IMG/VR virus record: IMGVR_UViG_3300030380_002200
Location: 1 to 58,635 of that record
Direction: 5' to 3' (one strand)
DNA: 58,635 nucleotides
DNA from: a virus
Lineage: Duplodnaviria > Caudoviricetes
In this document: positions 5,277-49,781 of the stretch, in pieces
Position numbering within the stretch: the stretch's first letter is position 1
Layout of the letters: each line of letters begins with the position of its first letter
Translations under genes and position numbers: made by a program
The notes under the pieces: generated by a model
Told to the model about the DNA's origin: nothing
Databases searched by the model: none
What the model saw: only the letters and a program-made list of their open reading frames with translations

Positions 5277-5292
5277 GTGTCCTTGAAGACAC
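5277..5292. repeat. 16-bp palindrome GTGTCYTYRARGACAC copy 1 (intergenic)
   Basis: GTGTCCTTGAAGACAC, 2 nt after the tail gene stop. Confidence 0.95.
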
Positions 5293-29143: not shown

Positions 29144-29216
29144 GCGGTGTGGGGGGAATCGAACCCCCGAGGATAACGGCTCCGTAGATAACCGACCCCT
29201 CCTTCCAAGCACACCT
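29144..29216 (-). ncRNA. tRNA-like element (intact acceptor stem and T arm, degenerate D and anticodon arms)
   Basis: 73 nt; GGTGTG/CACACC stem, GGGGG-TTCGATT-CCCCC T arm; A14, G15, G18, G19, C48 and T54-T55-C56-G57-A58 fall at canonical positions. Confidence 0.65.
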
Positions 29217-29245: not shown

Positions 29246-29506
29246 TTACTTGTCGTTCGCTTCCTCGTACAGGCGGTCAGCCCGTGACATGAAGTCCTCC
29301 TCCTCATTGGTGATGGTGAGGTCGGAGTCCTCCAACTCAGCGTACACGCCACCGAGATTCTCGATGGCTTTCTGCACGTCAGCTACTGCTTCCTGCTCAA
29401 GTGTGCTTTGGTCGGCACACCCATGGTCGGTGTACGTCACTCGCACACTGACCCATACCTCACCCGTGAAGGTGGGAATTACATAGTCGTCGTTTGGATT
29501 ACTCAT
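29246..29506 (-). CDS. Small acidic early protein
   Basis: Start reassigned to ATG 29506 (MSNPNDD); strongly D/E-rich. Confidence 0.6.
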   Translation of the reverse strand: MSNPNDDYVIPTFTGEVWVSVRVTYTDHGCADQSTLEQEAVADVQKAIENLGGVYAELEDSDLTITNEEEDFMSRADRLYEEANDK

Positions 29507-30605
29507 GGTCGTTGAATTTGAATACATCCTCGATGGTGTCGCTGATGTCGATTAGGTCTTTCTCTGCGTACCATGTATCGCACTCGCCGCAATGGTAGTT
29601 GTTGAACCCGTCGTACTCCACGTCAGCGAAGCACGTTGGGCAGACATGGCCGTCGTCGGGGAAATCGCAGTCAGCCAACTCGAAGCAGTCGGTGACTTCG
29701 TACTCGCGCTCGAACTCGATGGTCTGTTGGAACGGCTCCGCACGTTGCGGCAACACACGTTCGTATGACTTGTGATGCTCCTTGCCCTCGATGTTGACGT
29801 CGTTGAAGTACACCCATGCCGTGACAATCCTACGGCCCTTGTCCAACACGACAGGCACTTGCTCTCGGACGTACCAACGTGGGTGGCCCTCAAGCCCGTC
29901 GAGGTCAGCGAAGGTCTCGTCGTCAACGCGGAACACATCCACCTCAACGTGATGCCCGATACCCTGTTTGGGGGATAGGAACGGGAGGCCGTCGATGATG
30001 AGCGGGTATTTCTCTGCTGTGACTGCGCTACCCATGTAGATGGACTGACCCTGCAAGTGTCTCGCGTAGTTCCCATGCCCGCGCTTCAACGTGCCGTACA
30101 CAGCGACCACGTTGTCGCGAAAGATATTGGTCTTGCTGTACCACACACCATCCTTGTACGTGAACAGGTCGCGATTGTAAATCTGAAACGACTTGTGCTT
30201 GGTGTTGATGGACACGAAGCGAACGGCCTTGAACTTGGACAGGAACTTCTTCCATGACTTGCGTGGCATATCACCGAGTTTGTTGGCGATGTCCTGCGTA
30301 TCGGTCATGTCCTTGTTGCCGTATCCGTTGACCGTGCCGTTCATCATGAACAGTTCGTCGGCGTTCTTGCCACATACGAACGGGTGGGTGTTCTCCTTGC
30401 AGACCTTGCCGATGGTGGCGTACCTGAAGTGAGCAATGAACGGACGCTCGGTGTCGAGGATAGCGTACTCGCTTGACTTGAAGTAGTCCGTCTTGAAGGT
30501 GTCGAGCCACGTCACACCGAGGCCGTGAGGGTTGACGATGGAGGCGTTCTCCAACGTCTGCATAGCAATCTTGTTCTGCTTCTGCTTGATGATGATTACA
30601 CACAT
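29499..30605 (-). CDS. Class II (Ntn) glutamine amidotransferase fused to a gamma-glutamylcyclotransferase (AIG2-like) domain and a Zn ribbon
   Basis: Cys2 (MCVII), NPHGLG, IAHFRYATIG, NTHPF, MNG; VAVYGTLKRG...LDGLEG..Y.R (GGCT); CPTC...CGEC. Confidence 0.85.
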   Translation of the reverse strand: MCVIIIKQKQNKIAMQTLENASIVNPHGLGVTWLDTFKTDYFKSSEYAILDTERPFIAHFRYATIGKVCKENTHPFVCGKNADELFMMNGTVNGYGNKDMTDTQDIANKLGDMPRKSWKKFLSKFKAVRFVSINTKHKSFQIYNRDLFTYKDGVWYSKTNIFRDNVVAVYGTLKRGHGNYARHLQGQSIYMGSAVTAEKYPLIIDGLPFLSPKQGIGHHVEVDVFRVDDETFADLDGLEGHPRWYVREQVPVVLDKGRRIVTAWVYFNDVNIEGKEHHKSYERVLPQRAEPFQQTIEFEREYEVTDCFELADCDFPDDGHVCPTCFADVEYDGFNNYHCGECDTWYAEKDLIDISDTIEDVFKFNDHE

Positions 30606-31805: not shown

Positions 31806-31973
31806 TTATTTTGGGGTGATGAAAATTTCATCGAACGTCCAACCTTGGTTGCGCTCCATGTATGCAACGTAGTTGTCGATGTGGCTCTGCCCGCTCCACA
31901 ATTTCGTGACATGGCGCACACTACCAAGTCCCGTTTGGAACTTGATGGTGGCGTGGATGCGTGACTGACTCAT
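31806..31973 (-). CDS. Hypothetical early protein (55 aa)
   Basis: Start reassigned to ATG 31973 (MSQSRIH), ATGA-coupled. Confidence 0.55.
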   Translation of the reverse strand: MSQSRIHATIKFQTGLGSVRHVTKLWSGQSHIDNYVAYMERNQGWTFDEIFITPK

Positions 31974-32149
31974 GGCGTTTGGTTGAGGATGTTTTCGAGT
32001 TGGCATTCTTCCTGCTCAAGCAGACGAATCTCTGCACGGATGTCAAGGATGCGTTGCTTTGTATCCTCCAACAGCTTGGCCTTCGTGGAGTGCATTGCTT
32101 CCCATGCAACCTGTAACGGGGACTTCAGCGTGTTCTGTGGATTTGACAT
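31970..32149 (-). CDS. Small coiled-coil early protein (59 aa)
   Basis: Start reassigned to ATG 32149 (MSNPQNT); the longer track ORF runs through the ribozyme. Confidence 0.6.
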   Translation of the reverse strand: MSNPQNTLKSPLQVAWEAMHSTKAKLLEDTKQRILDIRAEIRLLEQEECQLENILNQTP

Positions 32150-32190
32150 GATGTTGTTGGCGGTAGGTGCGCCACCCATTTGTGTGAGTT

Positions 32191-32241
32191 TCCGTTTCGA
32201 CCTTTCGGTCTCATCAGCATCGGTACACACCGATGGACGGA
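32191..32241 (-). ncRNA. Hammerhead ribozyme, type III
   Basis: Minus strand UCCGUC^CAUCGGU-GUGU-ACCGAUG CUGAUGA GACC-GAAA-GGUC GAA ACGGA: complete catalytic core and three perfect stems; predicted cleavage between 32236 and 32235. Confidence 0.93.
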
Positions 32242-32247
32242 GGGAGC

Positions 32248-32263
32248 GTGTCCTTGAGGACAC
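32248..32263. repeat. 16-bp palindrome copy 11 (intergenic, stem extended by GGGAG/CTCCC)
   Basis: GTGTCCTTGAGGACAC, 6 nt 5' of the hammerhead on the minus strand. Confidence 0.95.
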
Positions 32264-32277
32264 GACTCCCGTTCGCC

Positions 32278-33192
32278 TCACCACCCGTGGCGGGTCAGGT
32301 CTCTGTCCCACCTGTCGGTCATGTTGCGGTGTGGGTCAATCCACGCGATGGTCTCGCGGTTGATTTGCCCTGTGCGGAGCATCTTGTTGAAGGCTTCCGA
32401 CAGCGTCAGAATCTCGGTGACCTTCACCTCGTCGTGGCCGTACATGGAACTCACGATGGGCGTGACGGCCTTGAGGAACGTCTTGAACGATGCGTTCGGG
32501 CGGTTGACAGCGAAGTCGAGCATCATGTAACACAACTCGTAGCGACGCATCATCTGCTTCACACCTGTGATGCGCGATGGCAAGCGGAACTCAACTCGGT
32601 CGCCCTTGCGGAGGCAGACTTGGTAGCGTCCTGCGTTGGTCTCCACGTCCATGAATGGGTTGCTTCGGCAGTAGCCGTTGCCCAACCGACGACGGAACAG
32701 GGAGAGCATGACCCCGCTGAACTTCTTCAAGCGGTTCATCAACTCCTCACCTTCCATGCCGTCCACAGCCAAGGTGATGTGCCCACCACAGCGGTGGTCG
32801 CTTGGGCTGTGGCTGTCCTCGATGATGCGCTTTGCCTCGTACATCATGTTGAAGACCTTGTTGCGCCATTCGCCCTTGGGGAGCAGGGGCAAGATGTGGG
32901 TGATGGCTTCGTAGCCACATGAGCCGTCACGCTCGAACCCTGCGAACAGAGCGTACTCGGTGACTGCGCCACGGCTGAAGCGAGACTTCTCAACCTCGAA
33001 GCCAATGGTGAACCTGCTGTTCACGTTGCCGTTCTCGAACTCGATGACGTTGCGCTTCTGCGCAGACTTCAGCGTTGCGATGTCTCCCTTCTTGGCTCCC
33101 ATGCCAAGGTGCTTGGGAGATGGAGAGCCGTGGTAGCGGACAACGCGGTTGCGGTTGTAGTCGCCTGTGGTGGTGTATTGGATAGTGTCCAT
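32278..33192 (-). CDS. Putative amidoligase (COOH-NH2 ligase, glutamine-synthetase-like fold)
   Basis: FTIGFEVE, ERDGSC, YEAIT, CGGHIT, RY, VEFRL motifs; start reassigned to ATG 33192. Confidence 0.8.
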   Translation of the reverse strand: MDTIQYTTTGDYNRNRVVRYHGSPSPKHLGMGAKKGDIATLKSAQKRNVIEFENGNVNSRFTIGFEVEKSRFSRGAVTEYALFAGFERDGSCGYEAITHILPLLPKGEWRNKVFNMMYEAKRIIEDSHSPSDHRCGGHITLAVDGMEGEELMNRLKKFSGVMLSLFRRRLGNGYCRSNPFMDVETNAGRYQVCLRKGDRVEFRLPSRITGVKQMMRRYELCYMMLDFAVNRPNASFKTFLKAVTPIVSSMYGHDEVKVTEILTLSEAFNKMLRTGQINRETIAWIDPHRNMTDRWDRDLTRHGW

Positions 33193-33209
33193 GGTGTTGA
33201 GTTTTAGGT

Positions 33210-33225
33210 GTGTCCTTGAAGACAC
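33210..33225. repeat. 16-bp palindrome copy 12 (intergenic)
   Basis: GTGTCCTTGAAGACAC, between the stop at 33229 and the amidoligase start. Confidence 0.95.
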
Positions 33226-34801: not shown

Positions 34802-34802
34802 G

Positions 34803-34876
34803 TACTCCCTATAGGATTCGAACCTATGACCCACAGCTTAGAAGGCTGTTGCTCTATCCAACTGAGCTAAGGGAGC
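34803..34876 (-). tRNA. tRNA-Arg (anticodon TCT)
   Basis: GCTCCCTTAGCTCAGTTGGATAGAGCA ACAGC-CTTCTAA-GCTGT GGGTC ATAGG-TTCGAAT-CCTAT AGGGAGTA; full cloverleaf, CCA not encoded. Confidence 0.95.
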
Positions 34877-47349: not shown

Positions 47350-49781
47350 AGGATGTTAAGATAAACATATCATCTACAGGGTTTCCGAGTCAATTCGTGT
47401 CCGACGCTGAAAAAGACTCCGAAGAGTTCGGTCTTCAGATTGGTCAGGCCATTCAGTATGAATGGTTTAAGAAGGACGGAAGTCAATGTAGATTTTACGA
47501 GCAATTTCGTGCATTGCATCGTTTGCGCCTTTATGCAAGAGGAGAGCAATCTATTGCGAAGTACAAGCAAGAGTTAGCTATTGATGGAGATTTATCTTAC
47601 ATCAATCTTGATTGGACACCTGTACCTATTCTTCCCAAGTTTGTAGACATCGTTGTAAACGGAATGTCGGACAGACTTTTTTCCGTCAAGGCATACGCAC
47701 AAGACGCTTTGTCACAATCAAAGCGCAGCAAGTATCAAGACCTTATTGAGGGGCAGATGGTTGCCAAACCTGTGTTGGAAAAAATTCAGAAGGCTACAGG
47801 AGCAAACCCTTTTGTTACTGACCCCGATGAGCTTCCGGAAACTGATGAAGAACTGTCACTCTATATGCAGCTTAACTACAAGCCTGCTATCGAGATTGCA
47901 GAGGAAGAAGCCATCAATACCATTTTTGAGGAAAACCACTACAATGACCTGCGCAAAAGGTTTGACTATGACCTTACCGTTTGCGGAATGGCCGTTGCAA
48001 AGCATGAGTTCCTCAAGGGCAGCGGAGTCAAGGTATCATACGTTGACCCGGCGAATGTGGTGTACAGTTACACCGACGACCCTCACTTCAAAGATTGTTT
48101 TTATTGGGGGGAGATAAAGACAGTTCACACAAATGAACTGCTGAAGATTGACCCTACTCTTACGAATGAAGACTTGCAAGAGCTTTCACAGTACGGTCAG
48201 AGCTTTTACGACTACTTCAACTTAGCACAGTATTACGACAATAGTATCTTTTACAGAGATTCTATTACGCTTCTGTACTTCAATTACAAGACGACTAACG
48301 ACATCGTCTACAAAAAGAAAGTTACAGATAGTGGAAACGTAAAGATGATTGAGAAGGATGACACCTTCAATCCACCTTCCGATATGATGGAAGAGGGCAA
48401 CTTTGAGAAGGTGTCAAAGAAGATTGATGTTTGGTACGACGGTATTATGGTGATGGGCACAAATTATCTTCTGAAGTGGGAGATGTCCAAAAACATGGTA
48501 AGACCAAAGTCTGCTAGTCAACACGCTATACCAAACTATGTAGCTGTAGCACCTCGCATGTACAAGGGCGTTATTGAGTCTTTGGTGAGAAGGATGATTC
48601 CTTTTGCCGACCTCATTCAGATGACGCACCTGAAGCTGCAGCAAGTTATTGCCCGCACAGTTCCGGATGGTGTATACATCGACGCAGATGGACTGAACGA
48701 GGTTGACCTTGGAACGGGCAATGCATACAACCCTGAAGACGCTTTGCGTCTGTACTTCCAAACGGGTTCTGTTATTGGTAGGAGCTATACGCAGGACGGA
48801 GAGTTCAACAACGCTCGCGTTCCTATTCAGCAGCTCACCTCCAACTCAGGCGCGTCCAAGACGCAGATGTTGATTGCCAACTACAATCACTATCTCGATA
48901 TGATTCGTGCGGTTACGGGACTCAACGAGGCTCGTGATGGCAGCACCCCCGACCCCAACTCATTGGTGGGCGTACAGAAGTTGGCTGCGCTCAACTCCAA
49001 TACAGCTACAAGGCACATTCTAGATGGAAGCCTTTACCTCTTTAAGACTCTTGCAGAGGGTCTGTCTTATCGTATTTCAGACATCCTAGAGTATTCTGAC
49101 TTTACTGATGAGTTCATCAACCAAATCGGAAAGTATAACGTCAGCATTCTCAATCAGATTTCTGACCTATACATCTATGACTTTGGTGTGTTTATTGAAG
49201 TCGCTCCTGACGAAGAGCAAAAAGCTAAGTTGGAGCAGAACATTCAGATGGCGTTGTCTAAGCAAGACATATTCCTTGAAGACGCTATTGACATCCGCGA
49301 GATGAAGAACATCAAGCTCGCCAACCAACTGCTCAAGCTAAAGCGTAAGCAAAAACAAGACCGCGAGGAGCAGCAGATGTTGCAGGGCAAGGCTATGGAA
49401 ACGGAGAGGCAGATGAAGTCTCAGCAGTTTGCAGCGCAAGCTGCTATGCAGAAGCTGCAAGCCGAGACGCAATCGAAGATGCAGATTAAGCAGGCTGAGA
49501 TTTCGTTCGAGATTGAGAAGATGAAGAACGAGGCGGAACTTAAGAAGATGCTTATGGAGCAGGAGTTCCAATACAACATGTCACTCAGAAACATTTCTGA
49601 GGATGCACTTCAGAGCAGAGAAACACAGCGCGAGAAAGCTAAATCTGAAAGGATTAGTCAGCAAAACTCTGAGCAGAGCAAGCTGATTAACCAACGCAAG
49701 AACAACCTTCCACCTCAGAACTTCGAGTCTAACGAAGACAGTCTTGATGGTTTTGACATGGCTGAGTTCTCGCCAAGATAA
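47346..49781 (+). CDS. Portal protein
   Basis: 811 aa after terL; PILPKFVDIVVNGM, TGLNEARDGS, long C-terminal coiled coil (barrel), as in podovirus portals. Confidence 0.85.
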   Translation: MKDVKINISSTGFPSQFVSDAEKDSEEFGLQIGQAIQYEWFKKDGSQCRFYEQFRALHRLRLYARGEQSIAKYKQELAIDGDLSYINLDWTPVPILPKFVDIVVNGMSDRLFSVKAYAQDALSQSKRSKYQDLIEGQMVAKPVLEKIQKATGANPFVTDPDELPETDEELSLYMQLNYKPAIEIAEEEAINTIFEENHYNDLRKRFDYDLTVCGMAVAKHEFLKGSGVKVSYVDPANVVYSYTDDPHFKDCFYWGEIKTVHTNELLKIDPTLTNEDLQELSQYGQSFYDYFNLAQYYDNSIFYRDSITLLYFNYKTTNDIVYKKKVTDSGNVKMIEKDDTFNPPSDMMEEGNFEKVSKKIDVWYDGIMVMGTNYLLKWEMSKNMVRPKSASQHAIPNYVAVAPRMYKGVIESLVRRMIPFADLIQMTHLKLQQVIARTVPDGVYIDADGLNEVDLGTGNAYNPEDALRLYFQTGSVIGRSYTQDGEFNNARVPIQQLTSNSGASKTQMLIANYNHYLDMIRAVTGLNEARDGSTPDPNSLVGVQKLAALNSNTATRHILDGSLYLFKTLAEGLSYRISDILEYSDFTDEFINQIGKYNVSILNQISDLYIYDFGVFIEVAPDEEQKAKLEQNIQMALSKQDIFLEDAIDIREMKNIKLANQLLKLKRKQKQDREEQQMLQGKAMETERQMKSQQFAAQAAMQKLQAETQSKMQIKQAEISFEIEKMKNEAELKKMLMEQEFQYNMSLRNISEDALQSRETQREKAKSERISQQNSEQSKLINQRKNNLPPQNFESNEDSLDGFDMAEFSPR

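Follow-up and report, generated by a model that had tools for sequence, protein, structure and literature searches.

Hammerhead ribozymes generally cleave 3′ of position H17, leaving one RNA product with a 2′,3′-cyclic phosphate and the other with a 5′-OH. In prophages, according to the available portion of Perreault et al. 2011 (PMC3088659), several hammerheads border one gene or a short block of genes, and a role in processing long phage transcripts is proposed; cleavage in vitro is described for three tandem arrangements, and in E. coli for one. The same portion describes a hammerhead of haloviruses HF1/HF2 located 13 nt upstream of a start codon; a transcript 5′ end maps close to its cleavage site. 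Thousands of hammerheads are encoded in phage and bacterial DNA, and a 2019 review (PMC6765202, in the part available) still gives their purpose as unresolved. Since phage intergenic hammerheads and the processing idea date from 2011 (PMC3088659), the kind of element analyzed here is already known. It lies at 32191–32241 on the minus strand of IMG/VR virus record IMGVR_UViG_3300030380_002200, which was analyzed whole (58,635 bases, estimated 98% complete; hereafter the window), between a gene for a 304-residue protein and a small downstream gene. Sequence comparison indicates that it is a genuine type III hammerhead fold under selection. The comparative support for function, which is unusually clear, and a third motif found at the same junction in relatives, are the parts worth following up.

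The minus strand from 32241 to 32191 reads UCCGUC^CAUCGGUGUGUACCGAUG-CUGAUGA-GACCGAAAGGUC-GAA-ACGGA, where ^ marks the predicted cleavage site. Stem III pairs 32241–32237 (5′ strand) with 32195–32191 (3′ strand); the stem I hairpin occupies 32235–32218, the core CUGAUGA 32217–32211, the stem II hairpin 32210–32199 and the core GAA 32198–32196. C17 is at 32236, which places the predicted scissile bond between C32236 and C32235. The cleavage triplet, GUC at 32238–32236, sits 5′ of stem I and conforms to NUH (H = not G); A32195 faces U32237 as the A15.1–U16.1 pair; and all core positions (C3 U4 G5 A6 N7 G8 A9, G12 A13 A14) are matched in the Rfam alignment. Three helices with covariation support surround the core, two of them (stems I and II) capped by loops and the third, stem III, open-ended. 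Searched against the whole window, the Rfam model Hammerhead_3 (RF00008) aligns end to end (positions 1–54 of 54) with 40.5 bits and E 2.3e-5; in a 601-base search it matches at the exact motif coordinates with 32.5 bits and E 4.4e-5. The first-pass annotation of this DNA had reported this sequence and cleavage position, and had recognized on the sense strand a canonical type III hammerhead whose core and stems are all intact; these points hold exactly. It also held that the element was masked by the open reading frame (ORF) track, and indeed a mechanical ORF, 31970..32311(-), runs across it. A second RF00008 match in the window, at 49083–49131 (11.6 bits, E 0.83), was taken as noise.

To place the element among relatives, we used the upstream 304-residue protein, for which 941 homologues were found. 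Aligning 27 of these (A1) and searching viral contigs with the alignment yielded 80 loci, and a first scan contributed one relative at 99%, for a total of 81; these loci include near-duplicates, and the tallies given here count loci, not independent events. RF00008 at E ≤ 0.01 matched the relatives' whole records in 39/50 and 27/31 cases, giving 130 matches in 66 of the 81 records; among records at least 90% complete, 29 of 40 had a match. Where a record held several matches (up to four), all were on one strand, the sense strand of the 304-residue gene. A strict type III descriptor run on the 81 loci (442,846 bases) gave 92 matches, every one of them on the sense strand, compared with 2 matches in five mononucleotide shuffles of all loci, both strands included. 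The Rfam tallies are lower bounds, since the descriptor found copies that the first RF00008 pass had missed (e.g. L013 and L054).

Placement of the element is also regular. We defined a slot reaching 220 nt downstream from the stop of the 304-residue gene and located it in each of the 81 loci. It holds a hammerhead core in 69, a T-loop minihelix in 10 and a third conserved motif in 2. CUGANGA in the slot typically begins 46–65 nt after the stop. The strict descriptor accepts 51 of the 69 loci with a hammerhead core; the other 18 are variants. Metagenome contigs, scanned separately, added 9 loci, 8 of them with a hammerhead.

The 93 strict matches from the window and loci comprise 76 distinct sequences, which were aligned (A2). 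When the hammerhead structure is laid on A2, 97.7% of cells are standard pairs, versus 35–47% when the 3′ partners are slid by one to three columns. Compensatory changes, with both sides altered, occur in 12 of 15 pairs (stem I 6/6, stem II 3/4, stem III 3/5), and the observed covariation score was reached by none of 500 shuffles; the stem covariation that the first-pass annotation suggested looking for in relatives is thus present. The A2 sequences were chosen by a descriptor demanding at least 4, 3 and 3 pairs, which tells against taking these figures at face value. The test was therefore repeated with hardly any ascertainment, by anchoring on a core regular expression only: in the slot, 59 of 59 distinct sequences had a perfect 6-bp stem I together with a stem III of at least 3 bp, and on the opposite strand 0 of 8 core matches had those stems.

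Other features were invariant although the descriptor did not impose them. G10.1–C11.1, a U at the first position of loop I and an A at the last position of loop II are each found in 76/76. N7, written N in the hammerhead consensus and hence unconstrained, was the sole core position that the descriptor left free; it varies (66 U, 8 C, 2 A). Cleavage triplets are GUC in 58, GUA in 17 and AUC in one. Loop II is AAAA in 39, UAAA in 8, CAAA in 8 and GAAA in 5, so the GNRA loop II once singled out as contact-forming does not characterize the family, unlike the two invariant loop nucleotides. In hammerheads, a tertiary contact between loops I and II allows rapid cleavage at low Mg2+. The two nucleotides fit a U–A contact between these loops of the kind tabulated in the legend of Figure S5 of PMC3088659.

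Close relatives show the same pattern at finer scale. In L139 (100% protein identity) the ribozyme is identical to that of the window, and in L003 and L147 (99%) and L142 (88%) the sole change is G to A in loop II. L140 (95%) and L141 (88%) have stem II GUCC/GGAC for GACC/GGUC, a compensatory swap from A–U to U–A, with the rest of the spacer identical. In L143 (79%) and L004 (71%), the closing pair of stem I changes from U–A to U–G, stem II is a different 5-bp helix, and an extra U follows A9. The core is kept in all eight of these relatives at 71–100% identity, and so loss of the core within retained flanks, which the first-pass annotation had named as a refuting outcome, is not what is seen.

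The 18 variant hammerheads at the slot depart from the canonical core in few ways: 12 have U10.1·U11.1, 2 have A10.1·A11.1, 3 have an extra U after A9 and 1 has A9U. The U·U form occurs in L008, L009, L017, L021, L030, L043, L052, L058, L068, L074, L078 and L082, the A·A form in L055 and L060, the extra U in L004, L032, L073 and L143, and A9U in L005. In the U·U and A·A variants the rest of stem II covaries, and because the stems keep covarying these variants look like a selected sub-class rather than products of decay.

At 10 loci (L019, L026, L031, L034, L038, L045, L057, L069, L071 and L083) the slot is instead occupied by a T-loop minihelix of the GGTTCGAnTCC type. Compact minihelices of ∼42 nt, with a 7-bp acceptor stem, a 10–11-nt connector often starting AUGGU and a T arm, are also seen at several junctions in relatives; those inspected are L019:2413-2454, L034:1494-1535, L038:3360-3400, L045:3674-3715, L075:4142-4183, L079:2537-2578 and L081:2399-2440. 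An initial descriptor for such minihelices was too loose (66 plus- versus 52 minus-strand matches), and only individually inspected cases are used here. The tRNA-like minihelix at the slot would be a plausible substrate of host tRNA-processing enzymes. That it can stand at the same junction suggests that what is conserved there is an element of RNA-processing type and not a particular sequence. This substitution of one element for another is the strongest functional argument that we have.

In two further relatives, L007 (3430-3500; = L119:8629-8684) and L014 (= L130:11367-11422), a third motif of 45–55 nt takes the hammerhead's place and leader distance. It consists of ACCAMC, a 7–8-bp hairpin and an invariant GAUUUGGUGGUAGAAAC, with an ATG 13–25 nt on, and its hairpin shows compensatory changes in 5 of 8 pairs (7 sequences). 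The motif also occurs in five other viral contigs (L115:4985-5040, L123:1270-1325, L126:688-743(-), L127:5883-5938 and L128:4803-4858). Neither it nor the tRNA-like slot elements has a match in Rfam or ARAGORN. Among 50 relatives' records, a covariance model of the motif (R1) recovers the two copies it was trained on and no others, and it has no match in the window, indicating that the motif is rare in the clade. We regard it as a candidate for a new ribozyme or RNase signal.

The hammerhead is embedded in a regular set of flanks. Upstream, the 304-residue gene ends with a TGA stop at 32280–32278(-). A 12-bp hairpin with one bulge, GGGAGUCGUGUCC-UCAA-GGACACGCUCCC (GGGAG...CUCCC), follows at 32270–32242(-) and abuts stem III with zero spacer. 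Among relatives, 65 of 78 distinct 40-nt stretches lying directly 5′ of stem III have a folding energy of ≤ −10 kcal/mol, compared with 40 of 390 random 40-mers from the same loci (Mann–Whitney p about 1e-32), and the hairpin usually stops 0–1 nt before stem III. The earlier proposal that cleavage would leave an upstream RNA ending just after a hairpin therefore finds a family-wide counterpart. The hairpin contains the palindrome GTGTC-N4-8-GACAC in 54 of 78 cases and is an unrelated G+C-rich hairpin in the remainder; RNA structure, beyond the palindrome as such, thus goes with the ribozyme.

Downstream, a conserved 41-nt leader (32190–32150(-)), delimited by homology with L003 and close relatives, separates the ribozyme from the likely start codon of the small gene (59 aa; 32149–31970(-), ATG at 32149–32147). 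In-frame ATGs occur 11 nt (32179, an alternative start) and 41 nt (32149) after the ribozyme. In L003, the 99% relative, 97% homology runs from 32576 to 32144, ends there and restarts at 31974 beside the stop codon, and this break just after the 32149 ATG favors a start at 32149. An unrelated gene replaces the small gene at window 31975–32144(-) in L003 (434-758), L140, L141 and L147, all relatives 88–99% identical upstream, with breakpoints at the start and stop codons. In relatives at 88–100%, one and the same leader precedes either of two different genes. Across the 92 copies, the first ATG after the ribozyme is at a median of 22 nt; 70 lie at 15–30 nt, and there is a second mode at 42–52 nt.

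The palindrome in the hairpin (32248–32263) is a genome-wide feature. GTGTC-N6-GACAC, mostly GTGTCCTYRAGGACAC, has 16 exact copies of 16 bp in the window, starting at 5277, 12108, 18148, 21141, 22011, 26525, 27948, 29122, 30628, 31461, 32248, 33210, 34134, 35761, 45309 and 52410; with one mismatch allowed there are 18 matches versus 2.2 expected. Copies are mostly intergenic and occur in both arms of the genome, and five fall inside genuine long ORFs, namely those for the giant virion protein, the helicase (two copies), Sak and GroEL. The palindrome's sequence, beyond its fold, is kept in relatives at 44–71% protein identity, which suggests that it may act as a DNA-level protein-binding site besides forming an RNA hairpin.

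Taken together, the hairpin, a functional type III hammerhead and the leader probably constitute an intercistronic processing cassette on a polycistronic message, a reading to which we assign a probability of about 70%. The hammerhead would be transcribed within a leftward polycistronic message, with stem I folding first, co-transcriptionally. As the GAAAC-GGA strand emerges, the three-way junction would form and the RNA would cut itself after C32236. The upstream product, carrying the message of the 304-residue gene, would then end in hairpin-UCCGUC>p, a 2′,3′-cyclic phosphate, with the hairpin 6 nt from the new 3′ end and shielding it against 3′ exonucleases. The short, 5-bp stem III would let the two products separate. 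Stems I and II, still folded and beginning with the 5′-OH, would head the downstream product, with a short, defined leader between them and the start codon. In this way the cassette could uncouple the stability, translation and decay of neighboring cistrons.

Several observations weigh against a processing cassette. Self-cleavage itself, co-transcription of the flanking genes, and effects on stability and translation are predictions from comparing sequences. The locus tallies overcount independent events because of the near-duplicates. A scan for promoter and terminator consensus sequences gave no more matches than shuffled sequence did and does not set the limits of the transcript. The window holds a single hammerhead copy, and its other early gaps have the hairpin alone. 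In L146, a metagenome contig with 44% identity, the 0–75 nt after the stop hold a palindrome hairpin and a T-run, a terminator-like arrangement, and no cleavage-type element; the hammerhead is thus the rule at the junction but is not indispensable. For the window copy, nearest-neighbor folding gives a minimum free energy structure other than the active one: CAUCGGUGU pairs with AUGCUGAUG, sequestering part of the core while stems II and III are kept, at −20.7 kcal/mol versus −19.3 for the hammerhead fold. Such a competing fold could slow or gate cleavage. Finally, the Rfam check proposed for the element succeeded in part, with a match at the exact coordinates whose 40.5 bits fall below the curated gathering score of 48.5. 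That threshold was set on other hammerheads and is not a structural feature. By Rfam's own rule, however, the window copy goes unannotated: a default scan with gathering thresholds returns only tRNA, and the hammerhead appears with an E-value threshold.

The low score also bears on whether the match arose by chance or is a decayed, inactive relic, as Rfam control genomes likewise give sub-threshold matches. This explanation is already contradicted by the conservation, covariation, strand bias and shuffles, and we consider it highly improbable. The competing fold raises a different question, namely whether cleavage is conditional, with the ribozyme switched either by the helix sequestering CUGAUG or by a factor from phage or host, and the downstream gene regulated in this way. 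In the window copy the active fold is 1.4 kcal/mol less stable than the alternative, 14 of the 18 variant loci carry U·U or A·A at 10.1/11.1 and may be slow or conditional, and regulated cleavage of phage hammerheads is raised in the available portion of PMC3088659. Yet the competing helix needs CAUCGG or UAUCGG in stem I, and most relatives differ; tied as it is to the stem I sequence of the window's sub-clade, this fold is not general. Moreover, stem I is transcribed ahead of the competing strand, and the 51-nt minimal fold has no ligand-binding or extra domain. We therefore think a switch unlikely. Even less probable, in our view, is that the ribozyme ends are made for ligation, serving RNA circularization or splicing, or release of a discrete non-coding RNA. 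Relatives do have two to four same-strand hammerheads a few hundred bases apart, the segments between which would have RtcB-type ligatable ends, and the available portion of PMC3088659 mentions this possibility, although spliced or circular products were not found according to that portion. With its single copy the window has no segment bounded by two ribozymes, and the segments between relatives' copies are ordinary small ORFs at fixed leader distances.

Exchange of the downstream gene suggests another reading, in which the hairpin–hammerhead–leader unit marks the boundary of exchangeable gene cassettes, as a recombination linker or selfish passenger, and processing is secondary or absent. 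The swaps in relatives 88–99% identical upstream, with breaks at 32144 and 31974, fit this well, as do the several hammerheads flanking single small genes in relatives and the inconstant identities of hammerhead-flanked genes (PMC3088659, available portion). But the compensatory stem changes and invariant catalytic core point to selection on an RNA fold and not on DNA homology, every copy is in gene sense, and replacement of the hammerhead by a tRNA-like element points to a shared RNA-level function. On balance we hold this boundary explanation to be improbable. Alternatively, the junction could be an obligatory RNA-cleavage point that is filled interchangeably by a self-cleaving ribozyme, by a host-RNase substrate in the form of the tRNA-like minihelix, or by the third motif as a new self-cleaving class or new RNase recognition element. 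We put this forward as a tentative proposal, rather doubtful in its full form.

The setting of the element is that of a phage genome with two arms. Plus-strand genes have PHROG matches to terminase, portal, virion proteins and GroEL, and minus-strand genes at ∼18.6–35 kb to helicase, primase/helicase, exonuclease, a Sak-like annealing protein and a fusion of glutamine amidotransferase (GATase) and gamma-glutamyl cyclotransferase (GGACT). The hammerhead lies in this leftward arm of replication and accessory genes, in the gene sense; gene order suggests that the arm is early and might form a single transcript. The arm also encodes tRNA-Arg(TCT) at 34802–34876(-). A tRNA-like element at ∼29146–29215(-) combines an acceptor stem of 6 bp (GGUGUG/CACACC) with a single internal arm and a T arm (GGGGG-UUCGAUU-CCCCC); a palindrome and then the next gene lie 3′ of it. 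ARAGORN makes no call there, Rfam gives only an 18-nt match resembling the 3′ end of tmRNA (18.5 bits), and the z-score of its fold does not reach significance. This element is probably a second processing signal of the leftward arm.

The upstream gene corresponds to 32278..33192(-), 304 codons plus stop. The listed ORF, 32278..33225, has an 11-codon extension; homologues are 304 aa long and start at M12 of that ORF. The first-pass annotation called the product an amidoligase. No Pfam match was found at E ≤ 1 for any of the 27 aligned family members, the protein has no PHROG match, and among PDB sequences there is none below E 0.35, so sequence comparison lends this label no support. The AlphaFold2 model (predicted local distance difference test score 76, predicted template modeling (TM) score 0.81) shows a weak similarity: the best-ranked Foldseek hits in the PDB are almost all glutamine synthetase (GS) and gamma-glutamylmethylamide synthetase (GmaS), with PafA too, at a best E of 2.2e-3 and TM 0.25–0.33. 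A GS-like ligase fold is thus possible. Two genes downstream, 29499–30605(-) encodes the fusion of a class-II GATase-like N-terminus with a GGACT domain. This pair suggests a small peptide or amide-bond metabolic module. The pair would fit an amidoligase-type system as reportedly described by Iyer et al. 2009, which we treat as a lead.

The window's terminase is 45.6% identical to those of cultured Flavobacterium phages of the genus Elemovirus and 36–39% identical to those of Cellulophaga phages. The source is best explained as an uncultured, ∼60-kb podovirus of Flavobacteriaceae-type hosts. GenBank phages included no close relative of the locus, only one 70% DNA match and one 40% protein match, both to the uncultured MW202828.1. 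RF00008 had no match in MW202828.1, Cellulophaga phages phi38:1 and phi13:2 or Tenacibaculum phage Gundel_1. The cultured Flavobacterium phage vB_FspP_elemoA_13-1A carries an unannotated type III hammerhead candidate at MT497065.1 18489-18545(-) (= L138:1190-1246(-)). RF00008 scores it at 36.3 bits (E 8.7e-8); it reads GUA^-stem I-CUGAAGA-stem II-GAAAC and lies 13–17 nt before the annotated start of the small gene phanotate49, depending on where stem III ends.

These comparisons make the clade a natural experiment, in which one junction nearly always has an element of RNA-cutting or -processing type while the kinds interchange. This interchange argues for selection on the cut itself. The hairpin–ribozyme–leader layout predicts exact RNA ends, and the cultured Elemovirus MT497065.1 makes this prediction testable. 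With default thresholds, Rfam misses nearly all members of the family: 128 of the 130 RF00008 matches fall below the gathering score, and 2 exceed it.

Compared with described systems, the window element shares with type III members of RF00008 the CUGAUGA and GAAA core, the GUC triplet, an open stem III, loops on stems I and II and a length of ∼51 nt. It differs from typical members in being compact, with a 6–7-bp stem I closed by a U-initial loop of 4–6 nt and a stem II of 4 bp capped by an NAAA tetraloop, and from the hammerheads of viroids and satellites in being encoded in a DNA phage. The RNase III sites of the phage T7 early transcript, and the tRNA punctuation and t-elements of organelles, are likewise structured intercistronic signals at which a polycistronic message is cut, with hairpin-protected ends. 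In the window, by contrast, the proposed cut would be made by the RNA itself, with no host enzyme needed; the tRNA-like alternatives at the slot resemble tRNA punctuation, in that host tRNA-processing enzymes would cut. RiboJ-type synthetic insulators place a hammerhead before a gene to remove upstream RNA context and leave a defined 5′ leader. These are engineered, whereas the phage cassette is natural and would also shape the upstream 3′ end. Like the HHphage ribozyme of HF1/HF2, which stands before an early gene, the element lies a short fixed distance upstream of a start codon; HHphage, however, belongs to an archaeal virus and has a variant core needing high Mg2+, whereas the core here is canonical (PMC3088659, available portion). 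In the open-access literature we found nothing on interchange of hammerheads with tRNA-like elements, on a regular 5′ hairpin or on clade-wide conservation at one junction for phage hammerheads. With the prophage hammerheads of PMC3088659, as described in the portion available, the family shares an intergenic position on the sense strand between small phage genes, several copies per operon in relatives and a proposed cutting role. As far as that comparison reaches, it goes beyond them in being uniformly type III, in occupying one syntenic junction in 81 relatives, in its regular 5′ hairpin and in its interchange with tRNA-like elements.

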